Shown one piece after another: positions 7,306-26,706 of a DNA stretch of 49,534 nt. How positions within the stretch are numbered: position 1 is the stretch's first letter; each line of letters begins with the position of its first letter. The position numbers were made by a program, and so were the translations under genes. The DNA comes from Candidatus Thorarchaeota archaeon (lineage in GTDB: Archaea; Asgardarchaeota; Thorarchaeia; Thorarchaeales; Thorarchaeaceae): contig JBHLRZ010000025.1 in assembly GCA_048882045.1 (NCBI GenBank), positions 1 through 49,534 of the forward strand, in the 5' to 3' direction. The notes under the pieces were generated by a model. It saw only the letters and a list, made by a program, of their open reading frames with translations, had not been told where the DNA came from and ran no database searches.

Positions 7306-8505
7306 CTACCAGAGCTGGTACTGTCTATTGACAAAACCTTCCCAGACTCGTGGAAGCTTACCAATGACTTCCTCAGTGATTGACTCAGCTGAAGCCTTTA
7401 CAGCTTCAATATCGCAATCACCAAAGAGCTCGACATTGATTGCCTTAGGTTCTGTAATCGGAGCACCAATCTGGCTAACAAGGTAGCAATAGACCTGTGA
7501 CAGGTCAGGATGTTCCTTGTAGACACGTTCAACTATCTCACGGGCTGCAACGTTGTATGTTTTGCCAACATGTGAAACTGGATTCTTACCAGCGGCTGCT
7601 TCGAGAGTCATTGGTCTGTAGGGAGTGATCAAACCATTGGCTCGATTACCGCGTCCAACCTGCCCATCATCACCATGCTCAGCGGATGTACCAGTAACTG
7701 TAAGATAAAACAGACCATCCTCTGGACTGTCTGCAGTGTTGACACTCACTTCAACTGGCATGTCAGTGATCTTGACTGCCAAGTCCTTGATGATATCAGA
7801 GATTCCTTCCATTACATTTGCGTACTCGTCTGCATCCTTGGTCTTGCTCGAAATTATTGCTGCAGCGACCTGAACATGAATTCGGTCGTCAATCCGTGTA
7901 CCCATGATCTTGATATCCTCTCCAATCTGGGGCCACTCCTTCTTGACCTTCTCACTGTTCAGAACCTGCTCAGACTCAAGGGTGATGAGCTCAGTTGGTG
8001 ACAGAGGTGCGTATCCGACGCCGAAGCTTGTATCGTTTGCTCTTGGTATTCCGCTTTCCAAATCGAAGTTCCCAACGAGGTCTGTACTCCCTGCACGGAT
8101 TTTGTAGTCGATGATGACATCAGAGTTTACATCCAGATTTGGAAGATCTGCACTTAGCCACTCTCGTGTGTGCTCCACTGCAAACTTACCAACTGGTACG
8201 ATTCGCTCATAATCCTTGTCAACAACATCAACTGCTCTGCCGCTCATCAGGATGTAAATGGGCTCAATGACATCCCCGCCGCCAAACTTGGCGTTGGACT
8301 GTCCACCAACAAGAAGGACCTTGTCCACGTTGTGATGCTGAACCTGATCAAAAACTTCCATGTAATACTGACTTAGGCGAACTGACAATTCTTCAGCTGC
8401 CTTGTCGCATAAAGTATCTGGGTGGCCCTTACCCTTTCGTTCCACAATCTCTACAGGGAGCTTGTCAACGGACGGGCCTGCTCCACGCGTGACTTTTAGA
8501 TTCAT
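7306..8505 (-). CDS. mat: S-adenosylmethionine synthetase, archaeal type
   Basis: VEIVERKGKGHPD, ANDTSFGVGYAP, GEDIKIMG, TGTSAEHGDDGQVGRGNR, EAAAGKNPVSHVGK; start placed at ATG 8505 (MNLKVT). Confidence 0.97.
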   Translation of the reverse strand: MNLKVTRGAGPSVDKLPVEIVERKGKGHPDTLCDKAAEELSVRLSQYYMEVFDQVQHHNVDKVLLVGGQSNAKFGGGDVIEPIYILMSGRAVDVVDKDYERIVPVGKFAVEHTREWLSADLPNLDVNSDVIIDYKIRAGSTDLVGNFDLESGIPRANDTSFGVGYAPLSPTELITLESEQVLNSEKVKKEWPQIGEDIKIMGTRIDDRIHVQVAAAIISSKTKDADEYANVMEGISDIIKDLAVKITDMPVEVSVNTADSPEDGLFYLTVTGTSAEHGDDGQVGRGNRANGLITPYRPMTLEAAAGKNPVSHVGKTYNVAAREIVERVYKEHPDLSQVYCYLVSQIGAPITEPKAINVELFGDCDIEAVKASAESITEEVIGKLPRVWEGFVNRQYQLW

Positions 8506-8597
8506 AATAATCAACTCGTCTTTCCCACGAGCGCGCAGAAAACTGCATAAATAACTTTTCATGGGTCATTCGCATGAGTAATATTCCCAAGCATTTT

Positions 8598-8614
8598 TAT
8601 TCCCTTAAGGAATA
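8598..8614. promoter_or_regulatory. Palindrome TATTCC-N5-GGAATA, candidate operator
   Basis: tattcccttaaggaata just before the HTH-CBS gene; a second TATTCC half-site at 8582-8587. Confidence 0.4.
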
Positions 8615-8619
8615 TAGAC

Positions 8620-9159
8620 TTGAAGCAAATGATGTCTGTAGAAAGCCTTCAGAATCTTCGTCACGAAGTCGGAATGACTCAGGCGGAGCTGGCAATTGAA
8701 GTTGGTGTGTCACAATCATACATTGCTAGACTTGAACGGGGAACCTTAGATCCTAAACTCTCCATTGTGAACAAGATATTCCAAGTATTATCAAGTAGAC
8801 TTAGTAAGACCTGCGCCGATATTATGACCGTTGACCCTGTTACAATTGACGCTCGAGATCCTGCATCAGTAGCTGTTGGATTGATGCAGAAACATAACTA
8901 CTCTCAAATTCCAGTTCTCCGAGGTACTCAAATGATTGGCCTCGTTACAGAACGTGACATCATCAGGAATCTCCAGCATGATATGCAGGAGTTGTCAGTT
9001 CAAGCTGTCATGAGCCCAGAGGGAGTCCCAATGATTGATGAAACTACTCCTGTTGACGTTATCACTCCTCTCTTTCAAAAGTACCAAGCAATTCTTGTTC
9101 AGAACCAAGGACGGATTCGTGGAATCATTACCAGGTCCGACCTTCTGAAATTGACCTAG
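8620..9159 (+). CDS. XRE-HTH transcriptional regulator with a CBS domain pair (COG3620-like)
   Basis: LRHEVGMTQAELAIEVGVSQSYIARLERG (HTH_3), followed by two CBS motifs (YSQIPV..GLVTERDI; GIITRSDLL). Confidence 0.92.
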   Translation: MKQMMSVESLQNLRHEVGMTQAELAIEVGVSQSYIARLERGTLDPKLSIVNKIFQVLSSRLSKTCADIMTVDPVTIDARDPASVAVGLMQKHNYSQIPVLRGTQMIGLVTERDIIRNLQHDMQELSVQAVMSPEGVPMIDETTPVDVITPLFQKYQAILVQNQGRIRGIITRSDLLKLT

Positions 9160-9171
9160 TAGATTTGCTCG

Positions 9172-9843
9172 TTAACGTTTTTTGATTACAACTACTATGA
9201 CCCCTATTATTGCAATTGTAACTGTACCAACTCCAATCAAGAGTGGAACTATGCTACCAGTTGAACGAGTAGTTCTAATGATGCGAAAAGTACCATCATA
9301 ATATTGCCAATTCATCTCTAAGAGATTCAGAGCACCATCACTCTTCGAGTATCTTACAGTGTCGGTATGAACACCACGAGTTTCGTCAACTGATATGGCC
9401 ATTCCCCACTCGGTTTCAGTATCAATTATATCAATTTCATCTTCAGTGTAATTCCACATCAAAAGAGATAGGTCTTTCACAAGACTCCAGTTCCCTATGG
9501 GATACGCAGACCAGTGAAAAGCCATGAATTCTATCTCTGTATCATTCATAAAATAGAAGGAAAAATATGTGTTGTATTCATTACCAGATGCTGCATTAAT
9601 TCTGGGAGATTCAGTGACATTAATCGGAATTGTAGGGAGACTGTCAATCTCTACATAATAATAGTAATCACGATTACTACTCGAAACCGAGTATCGAGTT
9701 GCGTAATGGTAATCAAAACGATCGCCAATCTCAATCCCCCAAGTTAGTCCATGATTGGTTACTCCTTGTGCAGTTCCACAACACATAATCAATATTAACA
9801 GCATTGGAATTACAGCTCTCGAATCAAACCCTCCTGACCTCAT
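9172..9843 (-). CDS. Secreted protein with C-terminal TM anchor and basic tail
   Basis: Signal-like N-terminus, several NxS/T sequons, C-terminal hydrophobic helix ending KKR. Confidence 0.8.
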   Translation of the reverse strand: MRSGGFDSRAVIPMLLILIMCCGTAQGVTNHGLTWGIEIGDRFDYHYATRYSVSSSNRDYYYYVEIDSLPTIPINVTESPRINAASGNEYNTYFSFYFMNDTEIEFMAFHWSAYPIGNWSLVKDLSLLMWNYTEDEIDIIDTETEWGMAISVDETRGVHTDTVRYSKSDGALNLLEMNWQYYDGTFRIIRTTRSTGSIVPLLIGVGTVTIAIIGVIVVVIKKR

Positions 9844-9978
9844 ACCTTCTCTAAAAGTTCAATGTAATTAATTAATCAATCGGAAGTCTACAGTTCCCTG
9901 TTTTGTTTTACAAATCATCCGTTTTGGTCCCCAGAGAATGTCTTATATGGACTGTAAGCAAGGTTCACTCGGAAAACA

Positions 9979-10635
9979 ATGGCACATTACCTAGATTCCC
10001 TTGACGACCTCCGCGAAGGTCTCGACACTTTTGTTGAGAAATGGGCCAATATTCAAAGGAAGTCTGTCAAGTCGATTCAAGCTGTTACTAACACTATCAT
10101 GCAGGTCGAACACTTGGACGGACCACTAGGTAAGCTCGAATCATTTCAAAACATTCGAGAGAACGCGAAAGGCATTCTCCTTGTGAACCTCTATGACCGC
10201 CTCGTGCCTAGCCTCGAGAGTTCCATTCGTGAGTTTACAAAACTCATGCACATGTTTGAGAATCTACGTCACACATCTTCGAAGATTCAGACACTCACCG
10301 AAACGATGAGGGGCAACCTAACAGAGTCTCCAGAACTAGAGGACCTGGTCGGATTCCTTGATCTCATTATGATCAGTGTTCGTGACATCCTGAACATGTA
10401 TGAGTCTGAGTTCCTAGTCAAGCTCACAATCTTTAGAGACTTCGAAGAAGGAGCAATCGAGATTGGAGTTGTGAGTAATTATCTCACGGTCTGGGGAATC
10501 GAACCCAATATCGAACAGAGTGCACGTGATAAACTCCTCAAGGACCTAGATGAGCATGTCGAGCTTCTCAGAGATGTCTTTGCTGGGAAGACTGGCATTC
10601 GAATCCCTGATGCCTACAAGAAGATTCAGCTCTGA
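9979..10635 (+). CDS. Helical protein resembling eukaryotic CINP / C1orf109 family
   Basis: KWANIQ..., ILNMYESEFLVKLTIFRDF and YLTVWGIEPNIE match recalled CINP motifs (KWETL, LLEMYRKELLLKRTV, YLSMWLHQPYVE); similar length. Confidence 0.65.
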   Translation: MAHYLDSLDDLREGLDTFVEKWANIQRKSVKSIQAVTNTIMQVEHLDGPLGKLESFQNIRENAKGILLVNLYDRLVPSLESSIREFTKLMHMFENLRHTSSKIQTLTETMRGNLTESPELEDLVGFLDLIMISVRDILNMYESEFLVKLTIFRDFEEGAIEIGVVSNYLTVWGIEPNIEQSARDKLLKDLDEHVELLRDVFAGKTGIRIPDAYKKIQL

Positions 10636-13445
10636 TTTCGCATTGCTATTTTCTTTCGTACCTCTTCAATGATGAAGACAATTGAGGCTAACAGAAACAC
10701 AAGTATCCACTCAACAGGTTCCACAGGAACTAGTTCGAAGAGTGCTGTCAAAGGTGGGAAGATGAAGAGGACAGCCACAAGGAGAATGTCGATGACATAC
10801 ACAATCCATAAAATCCTGTTTCTGAACAGACCCAGAGTAAAGGCTGATTTCGTGGGTGACCTACAGTTCTGAGCACTGAACCATTGAGTAACAATAAGGG
10901 AAACGAAGATCATAGTTCTTATCTTCGGTTCTCCACTTCCAAGATAGACAAAGTAAATGGCTAGTACAATGGTAGTCATCATGCTTCCATAGAAGAGGGC
11001 ACGTGTCAGAGTCTGTGTTGAAAGTACTCTTTCTCTGATAGAACTTGGTGGTCTATCAAGTAATCCAGCTTCCTTTGGTTCAAGTGAAACTGCAATGTCA
11101 AGCATTCCGTCTGTAACTAGATTTACCCAGAGGATTTGAAGAGGTAACAGCAACACTGGATTTACAAAAATCAAGAGAGTGGCCAGAATTAGGAAGCTTT
11201 CTGCGAAGTTCGTAGATGTAAGAAAAAGCACGACTCTCCGAAATGTGTTGAGGATGTGACGACCTTCATCAATACCATCCACGACGGACTCGAAGCGCTC
11301 ATCCTGTAGAACAATGTCGGCAGCCTCTTTTGCGATGTCTGTACCCGTAATCCCCATGGCTATACCAACATTTGCCTGTCGAAGGGCTGGTGAGTCGTTC
11401 ACACCATCCCCAGTCATTGTTACTATTTCCCCAGACTTTTGAAGCGCTTTTACGACACGTAGTTTGTGAATAGGATTTGTTCTTGCCAAGACAGTCGCTC
11501 GTCTTTCCAGCGTGACTTGTAATTCATCATCATCCATGGCATCGATATCATCTCCTGTCAGACTGACATCATCCATCTCTGGTTTGAAGATGCCTACCTC
11601 TTTTCCAATGGCCTTTGCAGTGAATTCATTGTCCCCAGTTATCATTATGACTTTGATACCTGCTCGTTCTGCCTTTGTGATGTAGTCTCTAACTCCTTCT
11701 CTTGGAGGATCGTTGATTCCTGCTAGTCCAATGAATTCCATATCCGTCAAGTCTTCTTCAGTTATCTGAAGATGATACTGAGGAAGGTGTCTGATCGCGC
11801 AGCTTAGTACTCTCATTCCTTGAGAGGCAAACTCACTCACAACTTCCTCACTTCCCGATGGTTTAGTAAGGAATGCTTCTATGATTTCAGGAGCTCCTTT
11901 TACAATGAGAAGATTTAGGTCCTCTGAGCTAAGTGCGGGGTGTTCTTGTTGCACAGATTGACTAGGTCTGTGAAGAGTCGCCATGTATTTCCTATCACTA
12001 CTGAAGGGGATCTCAGAAACACGAGCCCAAGCTTCATCAAGAACATACTTGTGAAGTTCGGCTTTTTCTAGCGCGACAATTAGTGCTGCCTCTGTCGGAG
12101 ATCCTCGAATTCTCCAGATTCGATTATCTCCAGTACATTTCCTTATTGGATCATCTTCACCAAGACATTCTGTATATATATCTGAATCATTGCAAAGTGC
12201 CAGATATGACAGGATTTTCTCGAGATCAGTAAATCTCGTAAGACCCTCCCGAGTGATTCTCACTCCACTTTCTTGATCGAAATCGATATCTTCGTGAATG
12301 TGTTCCGACCGCAGGCAAGTTTCTGGACCACAACCCTCTAGAAAGATACCTCCGCTTTCTGCATCAAAACCTACTCCACTCACCTCATAGAAGTGCCTGG
12401 GCGTGAATATCCTTCTCACCATCATCTGGTTTCTGGTGAGAGTTCCTGTCTTATCTGAACAAATCACATTTACAAGACCGAGGGTTTCTACAACATTCAG
12501 GTTTCGAACTATGACGTTCTTCTTCGATAAGCGATAGACTCCTACAGAGAGCACGATCGTTATGACAGCAATTAAGCCCTCTGGAATGGCTGAAACCAAT
12601 GAAGATAACGCAAACAAGATGAGTTCCAAAGTTTCTATCTGACGATATGTGCCCAAGAGTATGGTGAGAATGAGGAAAGTAAATGCTAATCCTATAAAGA
12701 ACAGACTCAGACGTTTCAATCGAATCTCGATTGAGGTTTCTTCTTTCTCCACACGTTGAAGTTCTCGATTGATTTCTCCTAATGACGTCTGGTCTCCAAT
12801 CTTTTCAACTAAAACTCGTGCTCGTCCTTGAGTGACATATGACCCTGCAAAAACCTTGTTTGACTCTTCATAGTAATGGGGTTCTTCTATCAGACAGACT
12901 ACATCCTTCTTCACCGGGACGCTTTCACCAGTCAATAGACTTTCATCAACATGGAGGTTCCGCTCGAAGATCACCCTAGCATCAGCTGGAACTCTCTCAC
13001 CTGCTCGTAACAGCAAAAGATCTCCAGGGACAATGTCCAAAGAGGGAACCTCTTGCTCTTCACCATTTCGTATGACTATTGACTTCTCCTCTATGAGTTT
13101 CTTAACCGACTCGATGGTCTTCTCTGCTCTCCACTCTTGCGCAAAGCCAATTATGGAATTGATGAACAGAATGATTGCTATCACTATTGTATCTTCAATA
13201 TGATTCCCAATCCAAGAAACTAAAGCAGCCAAAATAAGAACGTAGACAAGGGGTGATTTGAACTGACGAAGGTACATTAACAGAGGATTTGCGCTTGCTT
13301 CTAAAGTAAGTCTGTTCTGACCAAACTCTTTTCTCTTTGCGATGACCTCGTTTTCACTAAGCCCCTCAGGATTGTCACCCAGACTTAATAGACATTCATT
13401 ATAATCTACATATTCTTCTGTAGTCCTAGTCCCTTCTTCAGACAT
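10626..13445 (-). CDS. P-type ATPase, type IIA (Ca2+/Mn2+-like)
   Basis: DESLLTGES, IPEGL, CSDKTGTLT, KGAPE, DPPR, TGDN, TGDGVND, LWVNLVTDG. Confidence 0.95.
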   Translation of the reverse strand: MSEEGTRTTEEYVDYNECLLSLGDNPEGLSENEVIAKRKEFGQNRLTLEASANPLLMYLRQFKSPLVYVLILAALVSWIGNHIEDTIVIAIILFINSIIGFAQEWRAEKTIESVKKLIEEKSIVIRNGEEQEVPSLDIVPGDLLLLRAGERVPADARVIFERNLHVDESLLTGESVPVKKDVVCLIEEPHYYEESNKVFAGSYVTQGRARVLVEKIGDQTSLGEINRELQRVEKEETSIEIRLKRLSLFFIGLAFTFLILTILLGTYRQIETLELILFALSSLVSAIPEGLIAVITIVLSVGVYRLSKKNVIVRNLNVVETLGLVNVICSDKTGTLTRNQMMVRRIFTPRHFYEVSGVGFDAESGGIFLEGCGPETCLRSEHIHEDIDFDQESGVRITREGLTRFTDLEKILSYLALCNDSDIYTECLGEDDPIRKCTGDNRIWRIRGSPTEAALIVALEKAELHKYVLDEAWARVSEIPFSSDRKYMATLHRPSQSVQQEHPALSSEDLNLLIVKGAPEIIEAFLTKPSGSEEVVSEFASQGMRVLSCAIRHLPQYHLQITEEDLTDMEFIGLAGINDPPREGVRDYITKAERAGIKVIMITGDNEFTAKAIGKEVGIFKPEMDDVSLTGDDIDAMDDDELQVTLERRATVLARTNPIHKLRVVKALQKSGEIVTMTGDGVNDSPALRQANVGIAMGITGTDIAKEAADIVLQDERFESVVDGIDEGRHILNTFRRVVLFLTSTNFAESFLILATLLIFVNPVLLLPLQILWVNLVTDGMLDIAVSLEPKEAGLLDRPPSSIRERVLSTQTLTRALFYGSMMTTIVLAIYFVYLGSGEPKIRTMIFVSLIVTQWFSAQNCRSPTKSAFTLGLFRNRILWIVYVIDILLVAVLFIFPPLTALFELVPVEPVEWILVFLLASIVFIIEEVRKKIAMRNQS

Positions 13446-24457: not shown

Positions 24458-25708
24458 ATGTTCAAGTTCATGAAATCCGATCCTGTAAAAAAGGCAAAGA
24501 AGCACATCGAGAAGGCACTCATAGAGCTTGAGGATGGATATCCTGAGTATGCCAGTATTGAATATGAGAAAGCCGCAAAACGCTTTCTTGAGGTTGAGCA
24601 GACTGATTTTGCTGTCAAATACTTCCGAGAAGCAGCATTCTATGCTCTCGAGAAAGGTGATCATTATCGATGTGCTGAGATGAAAATACTGGCTGCTGAG
24701 AGTTTGGTCAGTGAAGGTAGGTATGATGAAGCCGGAGGTCTCTATTCTGAGTGCTCTGATCATCTATTTAGGGAAAAGAAGGAAAGGGAATCAAACAGAT
24801 ATTTGGGGATTTCAATCATTGGATACCTAGCTGCGCGGAATTTCGATACCGCCACTAATATCATGCGAAAAGCTGAGAAACGATTGAAGGATACCCCATC
24901 CAAGAGGGATCCACTGTATTCACTGGCTGAGATGAGTGTAAGAATTCTCTGTGAAGGCGAAGACATCAAAAAGAACACATATGAGAATGCTGCAAAGAAA
25001 GCGAAACCAAATGAGTGTGAACAACCACTTGTCAAGTTTGTAACTGAATCGACCTGCCTAGCCATTGACACCGAAGTAATTCTTGAATGGGCTGGAGCAT
25101 CTCAGAAAGAGGTTAATGTGAAAGAACCACTCGAACTTGAATTACGTTACAAATGTCCTGCGAAAGTAAGAATCGTTGACCATCGGCTTCCTCTTTCAAA
25201 CAGTGTGATACTTACAAAGAAACCTGAATATTCCTCTGAACCAGCCACCGAAGAATCTTGGTTGTTAGAGTTTAAACCAGTGATTAGTGGACTAGGATCA
25301 ATTGGTCCCTTCACTGTAACGTTGGAGGGCGACCGAGTCCTTGTGAACAAACATAGCAATAAGATTGAATTCAATATTGCCAAAGCTCCATCACAGATTG
25401 CTCTAATTGTCAAACCAGAAGTGGTTTCCTGCACACTAGGAGAAGAAGCTGTACTCGAAGTGACAGTTCTGAACGAAGGTGATGGTCCAGCAGAGAACAT
25501 CGAATTTTCAACGGAACTCTCAGATGGACTAGAAATCTCTCTTGGAAATGAACAGAAGCTGATAAACTTCCTTGGCAGTGGAGAGAATGTAAGATTCCAG
25601 TTATTTGTACGGGCAGTCGGTCAAGGAGAAGAACTCGCAACGATGAAGGTTAGAGATGGCCGCTCTGGACAAGAAGTTGTAAAAACATCCATGGTCAGAG
25701 TAGGATAG
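24458..25708 (+). CDS. SNAP/TPR-like alpha-solenoid fused to two Ig-like (CARDB-type) domains
   Basis: About 200 N-terminal residues of A...Y/F..AA helical repeats; beta-rich C-terminal half with V.NEGDGPA.N motif; no signal peptide or TM. Confidence 0.75.
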   Translation: MFKFMKSDPVKKAKKHIEKALIELEDGYPEYASIEYEKAAKRFLEVEQTDFAVKYFREAAFYALEKGDHYRCAEMKILAAESLVSEGRYDEAGGLYSECSDHLFREKKERESNRYLGISIIGYLAARNFDTATNIMRKAEKRLKDTPSKRDPLYSLAEMSVRILCEGEDIKKNTYENAAKKAKPNECEQPLVKFVTESTCLAIDTEVILEWAGASQKEVNVKEPLELELRYKCPAKVRIVDHRLPLSNSVILTKKPEYSSEPATEESWLLEFKPVISGLGSIGPFTVTLEGDRVLVNKHSNKIEFNIAKAPSQIALIVKPEVVSCTLGEEAVLEVTVLNEGDGPAENIEFSTELSDGLEISLGNEQKLINFLGSGENVRFQLFVRAVGQGEELATMKVRDGRSGQEVVKTSMVRVG

Positions 25709-25725: not shown

Positions 25726-26460
25726 CTAGCTCCTTCGCTTTTCCTTCTCAATCTCAGCTCGGATGTTCAAACAGGCTGTCATCACTTGTTCAATAGCCTC
25801 CTCTTCCTCGAAGGTCTTCAGCATATCATCAGCATCATCAAGGTTGTTTTCAGCCAGAGCCTCGCTGAATGAGAGCAAGGTTTCGAGCCAGTCCCAGTTT
25901 GTTTTGGTGATGATCTTCTTTGCCTTCTCTATCCGTTCCTTTGCCTTCTCCATCTTTTCAATGGTGGCAAATCCCATAGCTGCAAGTGAGAGGTTGATAA
26001 CTGCCCTCTCTGCATTACCTGCATCGACTGCTTTGTCCGCTGCCTTGTCATAGAGGTTTCCCATATTCTCGGCGCAGGTCAAGAAGTACTTGGTGTTACC
26101 AGTCTTGTGACAAGAATATGCTGCCCACAGATAGGCTTGAGCAGCAGTTTCGGTCATTCTTTCTAGAAGTGCTTCCTTTGCCGCATTCTCATAGAGTGTC
26201 AAGGCGGTTGAAAAATCACTTACCTGTCTGTATTGACTAGCTGCCTCCATATAGGCTGTTGCGGCAGATCTGTGGTCATCCTTCTCTACACTCTCTTCTG
26301 CATACATGTGATAGTACTCAGCGGCTTTTCGTGTCATATCTAGAACTCGGTCGAGATAGCAACTGGCAGCATTCTTGAACTGGTTGGCTGCTTGGTAGTA
26401 TCTCTCTGCCTCGAGAAACTCTTCTGCAATCCTTTCCCACTGTGTGCATTCATCATCCAT
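25726..26460 (-). CDS. alpha-SNAP/Sec17-like helical repeat protein
   Basis: [34 protein letters not shown] repeats; C-terminal [14 protein letters not shown]..; ATG 26460 after GAGGT. Confidence 0.7.
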   Translation of the reverse strand: [244 protein letters not shown]

Positions 26461-26706
26461 TGCTACTTGACCTCGAGAATTGTTTGATACAGAGCCTTCT
26501 CTCACTCTGTAAGGCTGTTTCTAGGGTGTGTGTGCTGTACAAATATGTTGCTCTGATGTGTTGGTCTCGATTTATCGAAGAAGAGAAGTCTGTTCGCGAG
26601 ATGATGATATAAAAATCAACTTTCTGGGTTATTGAGCCATCGCACAGAGGATTTTTATACGAAATACGTAATCTGTAATATAGCTTATATTCGTGTATGG
26701 GTATCG

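Follow-up and report, generated by a model that had tools for sequence, protein, structure and literature searches.

The CINPL locus

The window, by which we mean the whole 49,534-nucleotide stretch of DNA that was analyzed, is contig C25 of a 3.63-Mb Thorarchaeota genome that is 93% complete. The gene considered here is a single open reading frame of 218 aa with an ATG start, taken from the listing and translation of the open reading frames in the window, and we refer to its product as CINP-like (CINPL). It is alone on the plus strand: on one side lies a minus-strand gene (9172..9843) for a 223-aa product without a Pfam match, and on the other a convergent minus-strand gene (10626..13445) for a P-type cation ATPase, whose 3′ end is overlapped by the last 10 nt of the CINPL coding sequence. 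A gene placed in this way between two minus-strand genes needs its own promoter, and a candidate TATA-like box is present upstream.

9979..10635, plus strand: coding sequence of the five-helix CINPL protein, including the stop codon (open reading frame, homologues, profile, AlphaFold2 model, and dN/dS)
9943..9948, plus strand: TATA-like box TTATAT, 31 nt 5′ of the ATG (read from the sequence)

The position of this box predicts a transcript start only a few bases 5′ of the ATG, and the CINPL mRNA would then be near-leaderless.

The nine orthologues from the same genus share a common Met start and contain no stop codons. Their median dN/dS is 0.02 (21 computable pairs), and pairs that contain the window gene have a dN of 0.05–0.07 at saturated synonymous sites. 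A ratio this low, with few nonsynonymous changes against saturated synonymous sites, indicates that the gene is protein-coding and strongly constrained; it is under strong purifying selection. Several of the close orthologues (database entries P0003–P0011) are called with N-terminal extensions, at 229–257 aa. These longer calls probably have wrong starts, as all nine same-genus genes have in common the MA(H/Y)YLD or MPHYLD start that is used for the window coding sequence.

Predicted Fold and Conserved Motifs

The AlphaFold2 model of CINPL (pLDDT 88.9, pTM 0.83) has five long helices and is helical throughout (H2–45, H51–55, H59–112, H118–157, H162–174, and H180–201), so that the 218-aa all-helical protein described in the initial annotation is also what the reading frame and the model give. 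That annotation had further recognized three motifs in the order in which they occur in CINP, and these lie, in that order, at the positions listed below together with the conserved loop between helices 1 and 2. Conservation was assessed in an alignment of 22 Asgard CINPL sequences (A1).

10039..10053, plus strand: motif 1, KWANI, residues 21–25, in helix 1, with W22 invariant (alignment A1 and HMM alignment)
10108..10152, plus strand: helix 1–2 loop, residues 44–58, EHLDGPLGKLESFQN, with L53 near-invariant (alignment A1 and DSSP of the model)
10390..10428, plus strand: motif 2, LNMYESEFLVKLT, residues 138–150, in helix 3, with M140 and E142 invariant (A1 and alignments to CINP)
10480..10515, plus strand: motif 3, YLTVWGIEPNIE, residues 168–179, in helix 4 and the turn before helix 5 (A1 and alignments to CINP)

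Motif 2 agrees with the pattern L.MY..E.L.K.T and motif 3 with YL..W..(E/Q)P.(I/V)E. In the HMM alignment, W22 pairs with the tryptophan of KWE in human CINP, and HMMER pairs motifs 2 and 3 with LLEMYRKELLLKRT and YLSMWLHQPYVE of the human protein. Across the 22 Asgard relatives of alignment A1, in which identity falls to 18%, W22, M140, E142, E175, and P176 are invariant and P77, Y168, and W172 near-invariant; the helix 1–2 loop is conserved as well. Judged from these alignments, the motifs are more than chance.

Homology to CINP and C1orf109

A word-indexed search with CINPL returned 145 relatives, nearly all of them from metagenome-assembled genomes of Thorarchaeota, at 64%–94% identity and of the same length, and when the search was repeated with A1, all of the proteins listed were from Thorarchaeota. 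More distant relatives, at 18%–32% identity, came from searching 1.8 billion representatives exhaustively with HMMER; their source names are Asgardarchaeia, Hodarchaeota, and Promethearchaeota. Human CINP is already visible from the single sequence: in a phmmer search of the PDB, its chains are the four best matches (E = 0.004–0.008). The A1 profile finds human CINP in the PDB at E = 3.8e-10, with profile positions 6–186 aligned to chain positions 5–184, and a profile built without Thorarchaeota sequences (A2) finds it at E = 6.5e-10.

The relation to C1orf109 is more distant and is carried more by the family as a whole than by the window protein. CINPL matches Pfam PF15011 (C1orf109-like/CA109-like) over residues 19–150 at E = 3.9e-5, and its 24.0 bits fall below the Pfam gathering cut-off of 27 bits. 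PF15011 is found at E ≤ 1e-3 in 19 of the 22 Asgard members, no rival Pfam family appears, and five relatives (P0130, P0132, P0135, P0137, and P0138) exceed the cut-off at 35–54.5 bits, the best of them at E = 1.6e-14. An ESM Atlas feature search likewise has eukaryotic PF15011 clusters from plants, oomycetes, and arthropods as its nearest (score 0.93); the corresponding shape search returned generic helical matches only. Human C1orf109 was reached by neither A1 nor A2 among PDB chains at E ≤ 10, from which it appears that window CINPL is closer in sequence to CINP. By these profile matches, the Asgard family as a whole nonetheless bridges to the C1orf109 Pfam model.

Comparison of structures leads to the same two proteins. 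In a Foldseek search of 350,542 PDB chains, the top nine matches are CINP or C1orf109 chains (from four entries) except for one de novo design, and TM-scores to the C1orf109 chains are 0.56–0.60 (by query). Alignment to full-length CINP (8cih_A) with VIA gives Z 15.5 and an rmsd of 3.4 Å over 183/188 residues. An exhaustive VIA search of 48,161 representatives ranks CINP first (Z 14.4, 168/174 residues) and the C1orf109 chain 9gwj_C third (Z 12.8, 186/202 residues), these being the sole natural proteins among the top five; the others are de novo designs, and designed helical bundles reach Z 13.4 against the CINPL model. Given this high structural background of helical bundles, the fold match alone is not decisive. 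Once the statistics of the sequence matches and the collinearity of the motifs are added to it, homology to the CINP/C1orf109 pair is secure, and we are nearly certain that CINPL shares ancestry with eukaryotic CINP and, at a greater distance, with C1orf109. The kinship with CINP and the likeness to the C1orf109 family suggested by the initial annotation are thus borne out by profile and structure alike.

That the likeness reflects a chance similarity of unrelated helical bundles is very improbable and, on the sequence evidence, effectively refuted: although designed bundles score Z 12–13 against the model and the ESM Atlas shape matches are generic, the profile match is full length with three collinear conserved motifs, the profile lacking Thorarchaeota independently yields the same CINP match, no competing Pfam family exists, and an independent published analysis made the same assignment (PMC12962969).

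Distribution, Copy Number, and Ancestry

Searched with the 22-sequence profile, 128 of 400 Asgard genomes contain CINPL, in every case without internal stops. It is present in 79/85 genomes of the window's own family and in four other Asgard families (21/22, 17/19, 5/5, and 2/2), and with the same profile it was absent from the largest family sampled (0/135) and from others (0/31, 0/14, 0/12, and 0/12). This patchy spread agrees with the "five major clades" already published (PMC12962969). All 128 positive genomes hold one copy, the few second matches being contig-end fragments, and in the window's genome one copy was found by both the protein search and the PF15011 search. A second PF15011 match in that genome (13.5 bits, E = 0.1), inside a 487-aa frame, was dismissed as a C1orf109-type partner. 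No longer or fused forms of CINPL were found at E ≤ 0.01, in a search that is weak for such forms. With one copy per genome there is no archaeal counterpart of the CINP–C1orf109 pair, and the single-copy state fits a single ancestor of both adaptors.

It could also be that CINPL is orthologous to CINP only, and that C1orf109 either does not derive from it or has diverged within eukaryotes beyond recognition. The Asgard profiles reach human CINP (E of ~4e-10 to 7e-10) and, at E ≤ 10, do not reach human C1orf109; structural alignments give 16%–19% identity to CINP versus 12%–13% to C1orf109; and the tree of Koestlbacher et al. (PMC12962969) places eukaryotic CINP as sister to Hodarchaeales, without C1orf109. 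Yet PF15011, which matches most of the Asgard members at up to 54.5 bits, is a model that Pfam built for C1orf109; among natural proteins, only CINP matches the CINPL structure better than C1orf109 does (Z 12.8 over 186 residues); the five-helix layout is common to CINP and C1orf109 (PMC12019325); and each positive Asgard genome holds one copy. Weighing these observations, we consider descent of CINP only to be unlikely, if far from negligible.

Candidate Partners and Gene Neighborhoods

Two full ATPases of the Cdc48 type are encoded in the window's genome; both combine CDC48_N and CDC48_2 with two AAA domains.

Contig C19, 11351–13558, minus strand: Cdc48/VAT paralogue of 735 aa (L012/L013 pair; domain searches)
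Contig C16, 44666–46852, minus strand: Cdc48/VAT paralogue of 728 aa (L012/L013 pair; domain searches)

Both score highest against VAT (~760–776 bits), followed by p97 (~650–680), SPATA5 (~545), and Afg2 (~500), which indicates that the genome has no dedicated AFG2-type enzyme. A third CDC48_N match on contig C7, at 18 bits and near the C-terminus of a 796-aa frame, was dismissed. The N-domains of the two paralogues are 39% identical. The C19 protein ends in MYG, an HbYX-like C-terminus that resembles the LYG tail of p97, and its N-domain is 81%–93% identical across Thorarchaeota; the C16 protein ends in GYV and has clear N-domain orthologues (50%–95% identity) only within the Thorarchaeota family. 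Cdc48-N genes are present in every one of the 189 Asgard genomes that are at least 90% complete, and a search of these genomes with the C16 N-domain revealed no Cdc48 N-domain paralogue that tracks CINPL. Complex prediction of CINPL with the N-domains of both paralogues, run without controls, gave ipSAE values of 0.01 and 0.00, which speak neither for nor against binding. The genome contains one eL24 gene (PF01246 matches once, within an open frame of 72 aa), hence, as far as its 93% completeness allows, no Rlp24-like placeholder, and one NOG1-family GTPase.

The neighborhoods of six CINPL relatives contain no conserved partner gene. In Thorarchaeota the gene order is SAM synthetase, HTH-CBS regulator, a variable insert, CINPL, and cation transporters. 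The SAM synthetase is on the minus strand and the HTH-CBS regulator and CINPL on the plus strand (window, 7306–10635; L036, 2912–5660; L037, 512–5657). The gap between the HTH-CBS regulator and CINPL is empty in one genome and holds an 824-aa DEAD helicase in another; in the window it is occupied by the 223-aa minus-strand protein, which is hydrophobic in an N-terminal segment and in a C-terminal stretch. Elsewhere among the Asgard lineages, the neighbors differ and include no AAA ATPase; in some of them MetRS, RNase HII, PolB, and S26e are found. For instance, in an "Asgardarchaeia" relative (L007, 4677–8389) CINPL has a weakly Arf-like small GTPase on one side and RNase HII on the other; PAC2, a proteasome assembly chaperone, comes next after RNase HII, and the genes for DNA polymerase B and MetRS lie upstream. 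A second lineage also has MetRS near CINPL.

The window had further been proposed to hold two kinds of AAA adaptors, the second being SNAP-like. A 259-aa minus-strand product (25726–26505) does pass the Pfam SNAP model (PF14938), barely, at 25.6 versus 25 bits (E = 1.1e-5) and over residues 33–109 only, and its convergent 416-aa plus-strand neighbor (24458–25708) has no Pfam match at E ≤ 1e-3. The supposed SNAP-like pair thus comes down to one marginal, partial match.

A Possible Lid on an Archaeal Unfoldase

In human cells, four SPATA5 and two SPATA5L1 subunits carry two CINP–C1orf109 heterodimers on their N-domains; the heterodimers make up the funnel over the pore and, on pre-60S particles, recruit Rlp24 (PMC12019325, PMC11055677). 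The α1–α2 loop of C1orf109 contacts CINP in this complex (PMC12019325), and on the CINP side L162, S181, and S184 are the C1orf109-contact residues, of which L162, when mutated, breaks the contact (PMC11055677).

The best overall explanation of our observations is that CINPL belongs, as the Thorarchaeota orthologue, to the Asgard CINPL family already described, stands alone as a five-helix protein of ~200 residues, and serves as an AAA lid or adaptor; as a whole, we would give this account an even chance. The specific assignment as an adaptor on a Cdc48/VAT-type unfoldase, which draws on analogy with the human complex, is tentative and in our judgment falls slightly short of even. CINPL would cover, as a small helical lid, the N-terminal domains of a double-ring AAA+ unfoldase of the Cdc48/VAT type, would self-associate in place of the CINP–C1orf109 heterodimer, and, when bound as a lid, could deliver particular proteins or ribonucleoproteins to the pore as substrates. 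Because both human relatives bind the N-domains of SPATA5/SPATA5L1, AAA binding is most simply ancestral, and an ancestral-adaptor role for CINPL is plausible. Self-association is probable since no second paralogue is present. CINP L162, S181, and S184 align with V147, N167, and T170 of CINPL, positions that fall within the two most conserved archaeal motifs, and these conserved positions together with the conserved helix 1–2 loop would fit self-association; the loop, as the equivalent of the contact loop of C1orf109, may itself have a contact role.

Two full Cdc48-type ATPases are available in the genome for such a lid. On the other side of the balance, the CINPL gene is monocistronic and its context points to no partner, neither Cdc48 paralogue is AFG2/SPATA5-like, none follows the patchy spread of CINPL, and there is no Rlp24. 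Moreover, E147 of human CINP, which contacts R84 of SPATA5, is matched in the pairwise alignment by M131 of CINPL, in a region where that alignment is of low confidence.

The main rival to the Cdc48-lid mechanism holds that CINPL is a true CINP/C1orf109 homologue that works without an AAA ATPase in archaea, for example as a scaffold for a NOG1-family GTPase or for replication proteins, and that the family came to be linked with an AFG2-type unfoldase only in eukaryotes. Human CINP directly contacts rRNA ES27A and GTPBP4, the counterpart of the NOG1 family (PMC12019325), and its earliest descriptions are as a factor in replication and checkpoints (references in PMC12962969). The genome has its one NOG1-family GTPase and no AFG2-type ATPase, and no Cdc48 paralogue co-varies with CINPL. 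The translation and replication genes next to CINPL in some Asgard lineages (MetRS, RNase HII, PolB, and S26e) point the same way, but these neighbors differ between lineages and so carry little weight. Binding of AAA N-domains by both eukaryotic paralogues suggests instead that this property is ancestral. The CINP-bound segment of GTPBP4 (residues 452–474) and ES27 are also, to our knowledge, eukaryotic elaborations. We regard an AAA-free role, taken as a whole view, as a serious possibility that we are nevertheless inclined to doubt.

The Cdc48-lid mechanism has a further, evolutionary form, in which single-copy CINPL represents the state before the CINP/C1orf109 duplication and already caps, by associating with itself, the N-domain ring of an archaeal Cdc48. 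This form is speculative, and we think it improbable as it stands. If it is true, the eukaryotic machine for 60S maturation and replisome proteostasis, an AFG2-type unfoldase capped by adaptors, would go back to a module of Cdc48 and lid that predates eukaryogenesis, a point that is absent from the published work on Asgard CINP.

Relation to Published Work

CINP and C1orf109 were long held to be cofactors of the SPATA5 unfoldase that are restricted to eukaryotes (even "human-specific"), and the unfoldase is mutated in neurodevelopmental disease. Relatives in Asgard archaea shift the origin of the adaptor to before eukaryogenesis, a point already in the literature. CINP homologues, named CINPL, have been described from five major Asgard clades and as absent from other prokaryotes by Koestlbacher et al. 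(bioRxiv 10.1101/2024.07.03.601958; Nat Microbiol 2026, PMC12962969, Fig. 4h), so that the initial annotation was correct in recalling that structure-based Asgard surveys mention such proteins, and the present finding is not novel. The text of PMC12962969 does not mention PF15011, CA109, AFG2, or Cdc48, C1orf109 appears in one reference title only, and C1orf109/PF15011, copy number, and a possible Cdc48 partner are not discussed there. The window protein is, with near certainty as to its homology, the Thorarchaeota orthologue of this published family, and it adds confirmation in one further Thorarchaeota genome. Our small additions are that CINPL is always single-copy, that its matches include the C1orf109 Pfam model in addition to CINP, and that it is not accompanied by an AFG2-type ATPase, an Rlp24 paralogue, or a conserved neighbor.

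Comparison with Known Systems

Compared with the human 55LCC complex (SPATA5–SPATA5L1–CINP–C1orf109), the window's genome differs in three respects: it has no second lid paralogue or gene for a C1orf109 partner, no AFG2/SPATA5-type AAA pair, and no Rlp24-type second L24e paralogue. With C1orf109/AIRIM itself (PF15011; PDB 9GWJ chains A and C, 8RHN_B, and 9LGO_H) CINPL shares the five-helix layout, at a structural-alignment identity of 12%–13% and with a PF15011 score below the cut-off.

The likeness to human CINP is closer and extends to the length, the five-helix bundle, the tryptophan in helix 1, and the motifs MY..E.L.K.T and YL..W..(Q/E)P.(V/I)E. Sequence identity to CINP is nevertheless 16%–19%, and CINPL starts at the equivalent of CINP residue 17, without the N-terminal extension of ~16 residues. 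In place of the basic RKIK of human CINP stands DSLD, and E142, invariant in Asgard members, aligns with R157 of human CINP. In human cells the complex can form without the basic N-terminal PRKP/RKIK motifs of animal CINP (PMC11055677), which hence do not define the family. Compared with the published Asgard CINPL proteins (~200–240 aa), the window protein belongs to the same family, with a predicted structure and a full-length profile that match CINP, and is in no essential way different.
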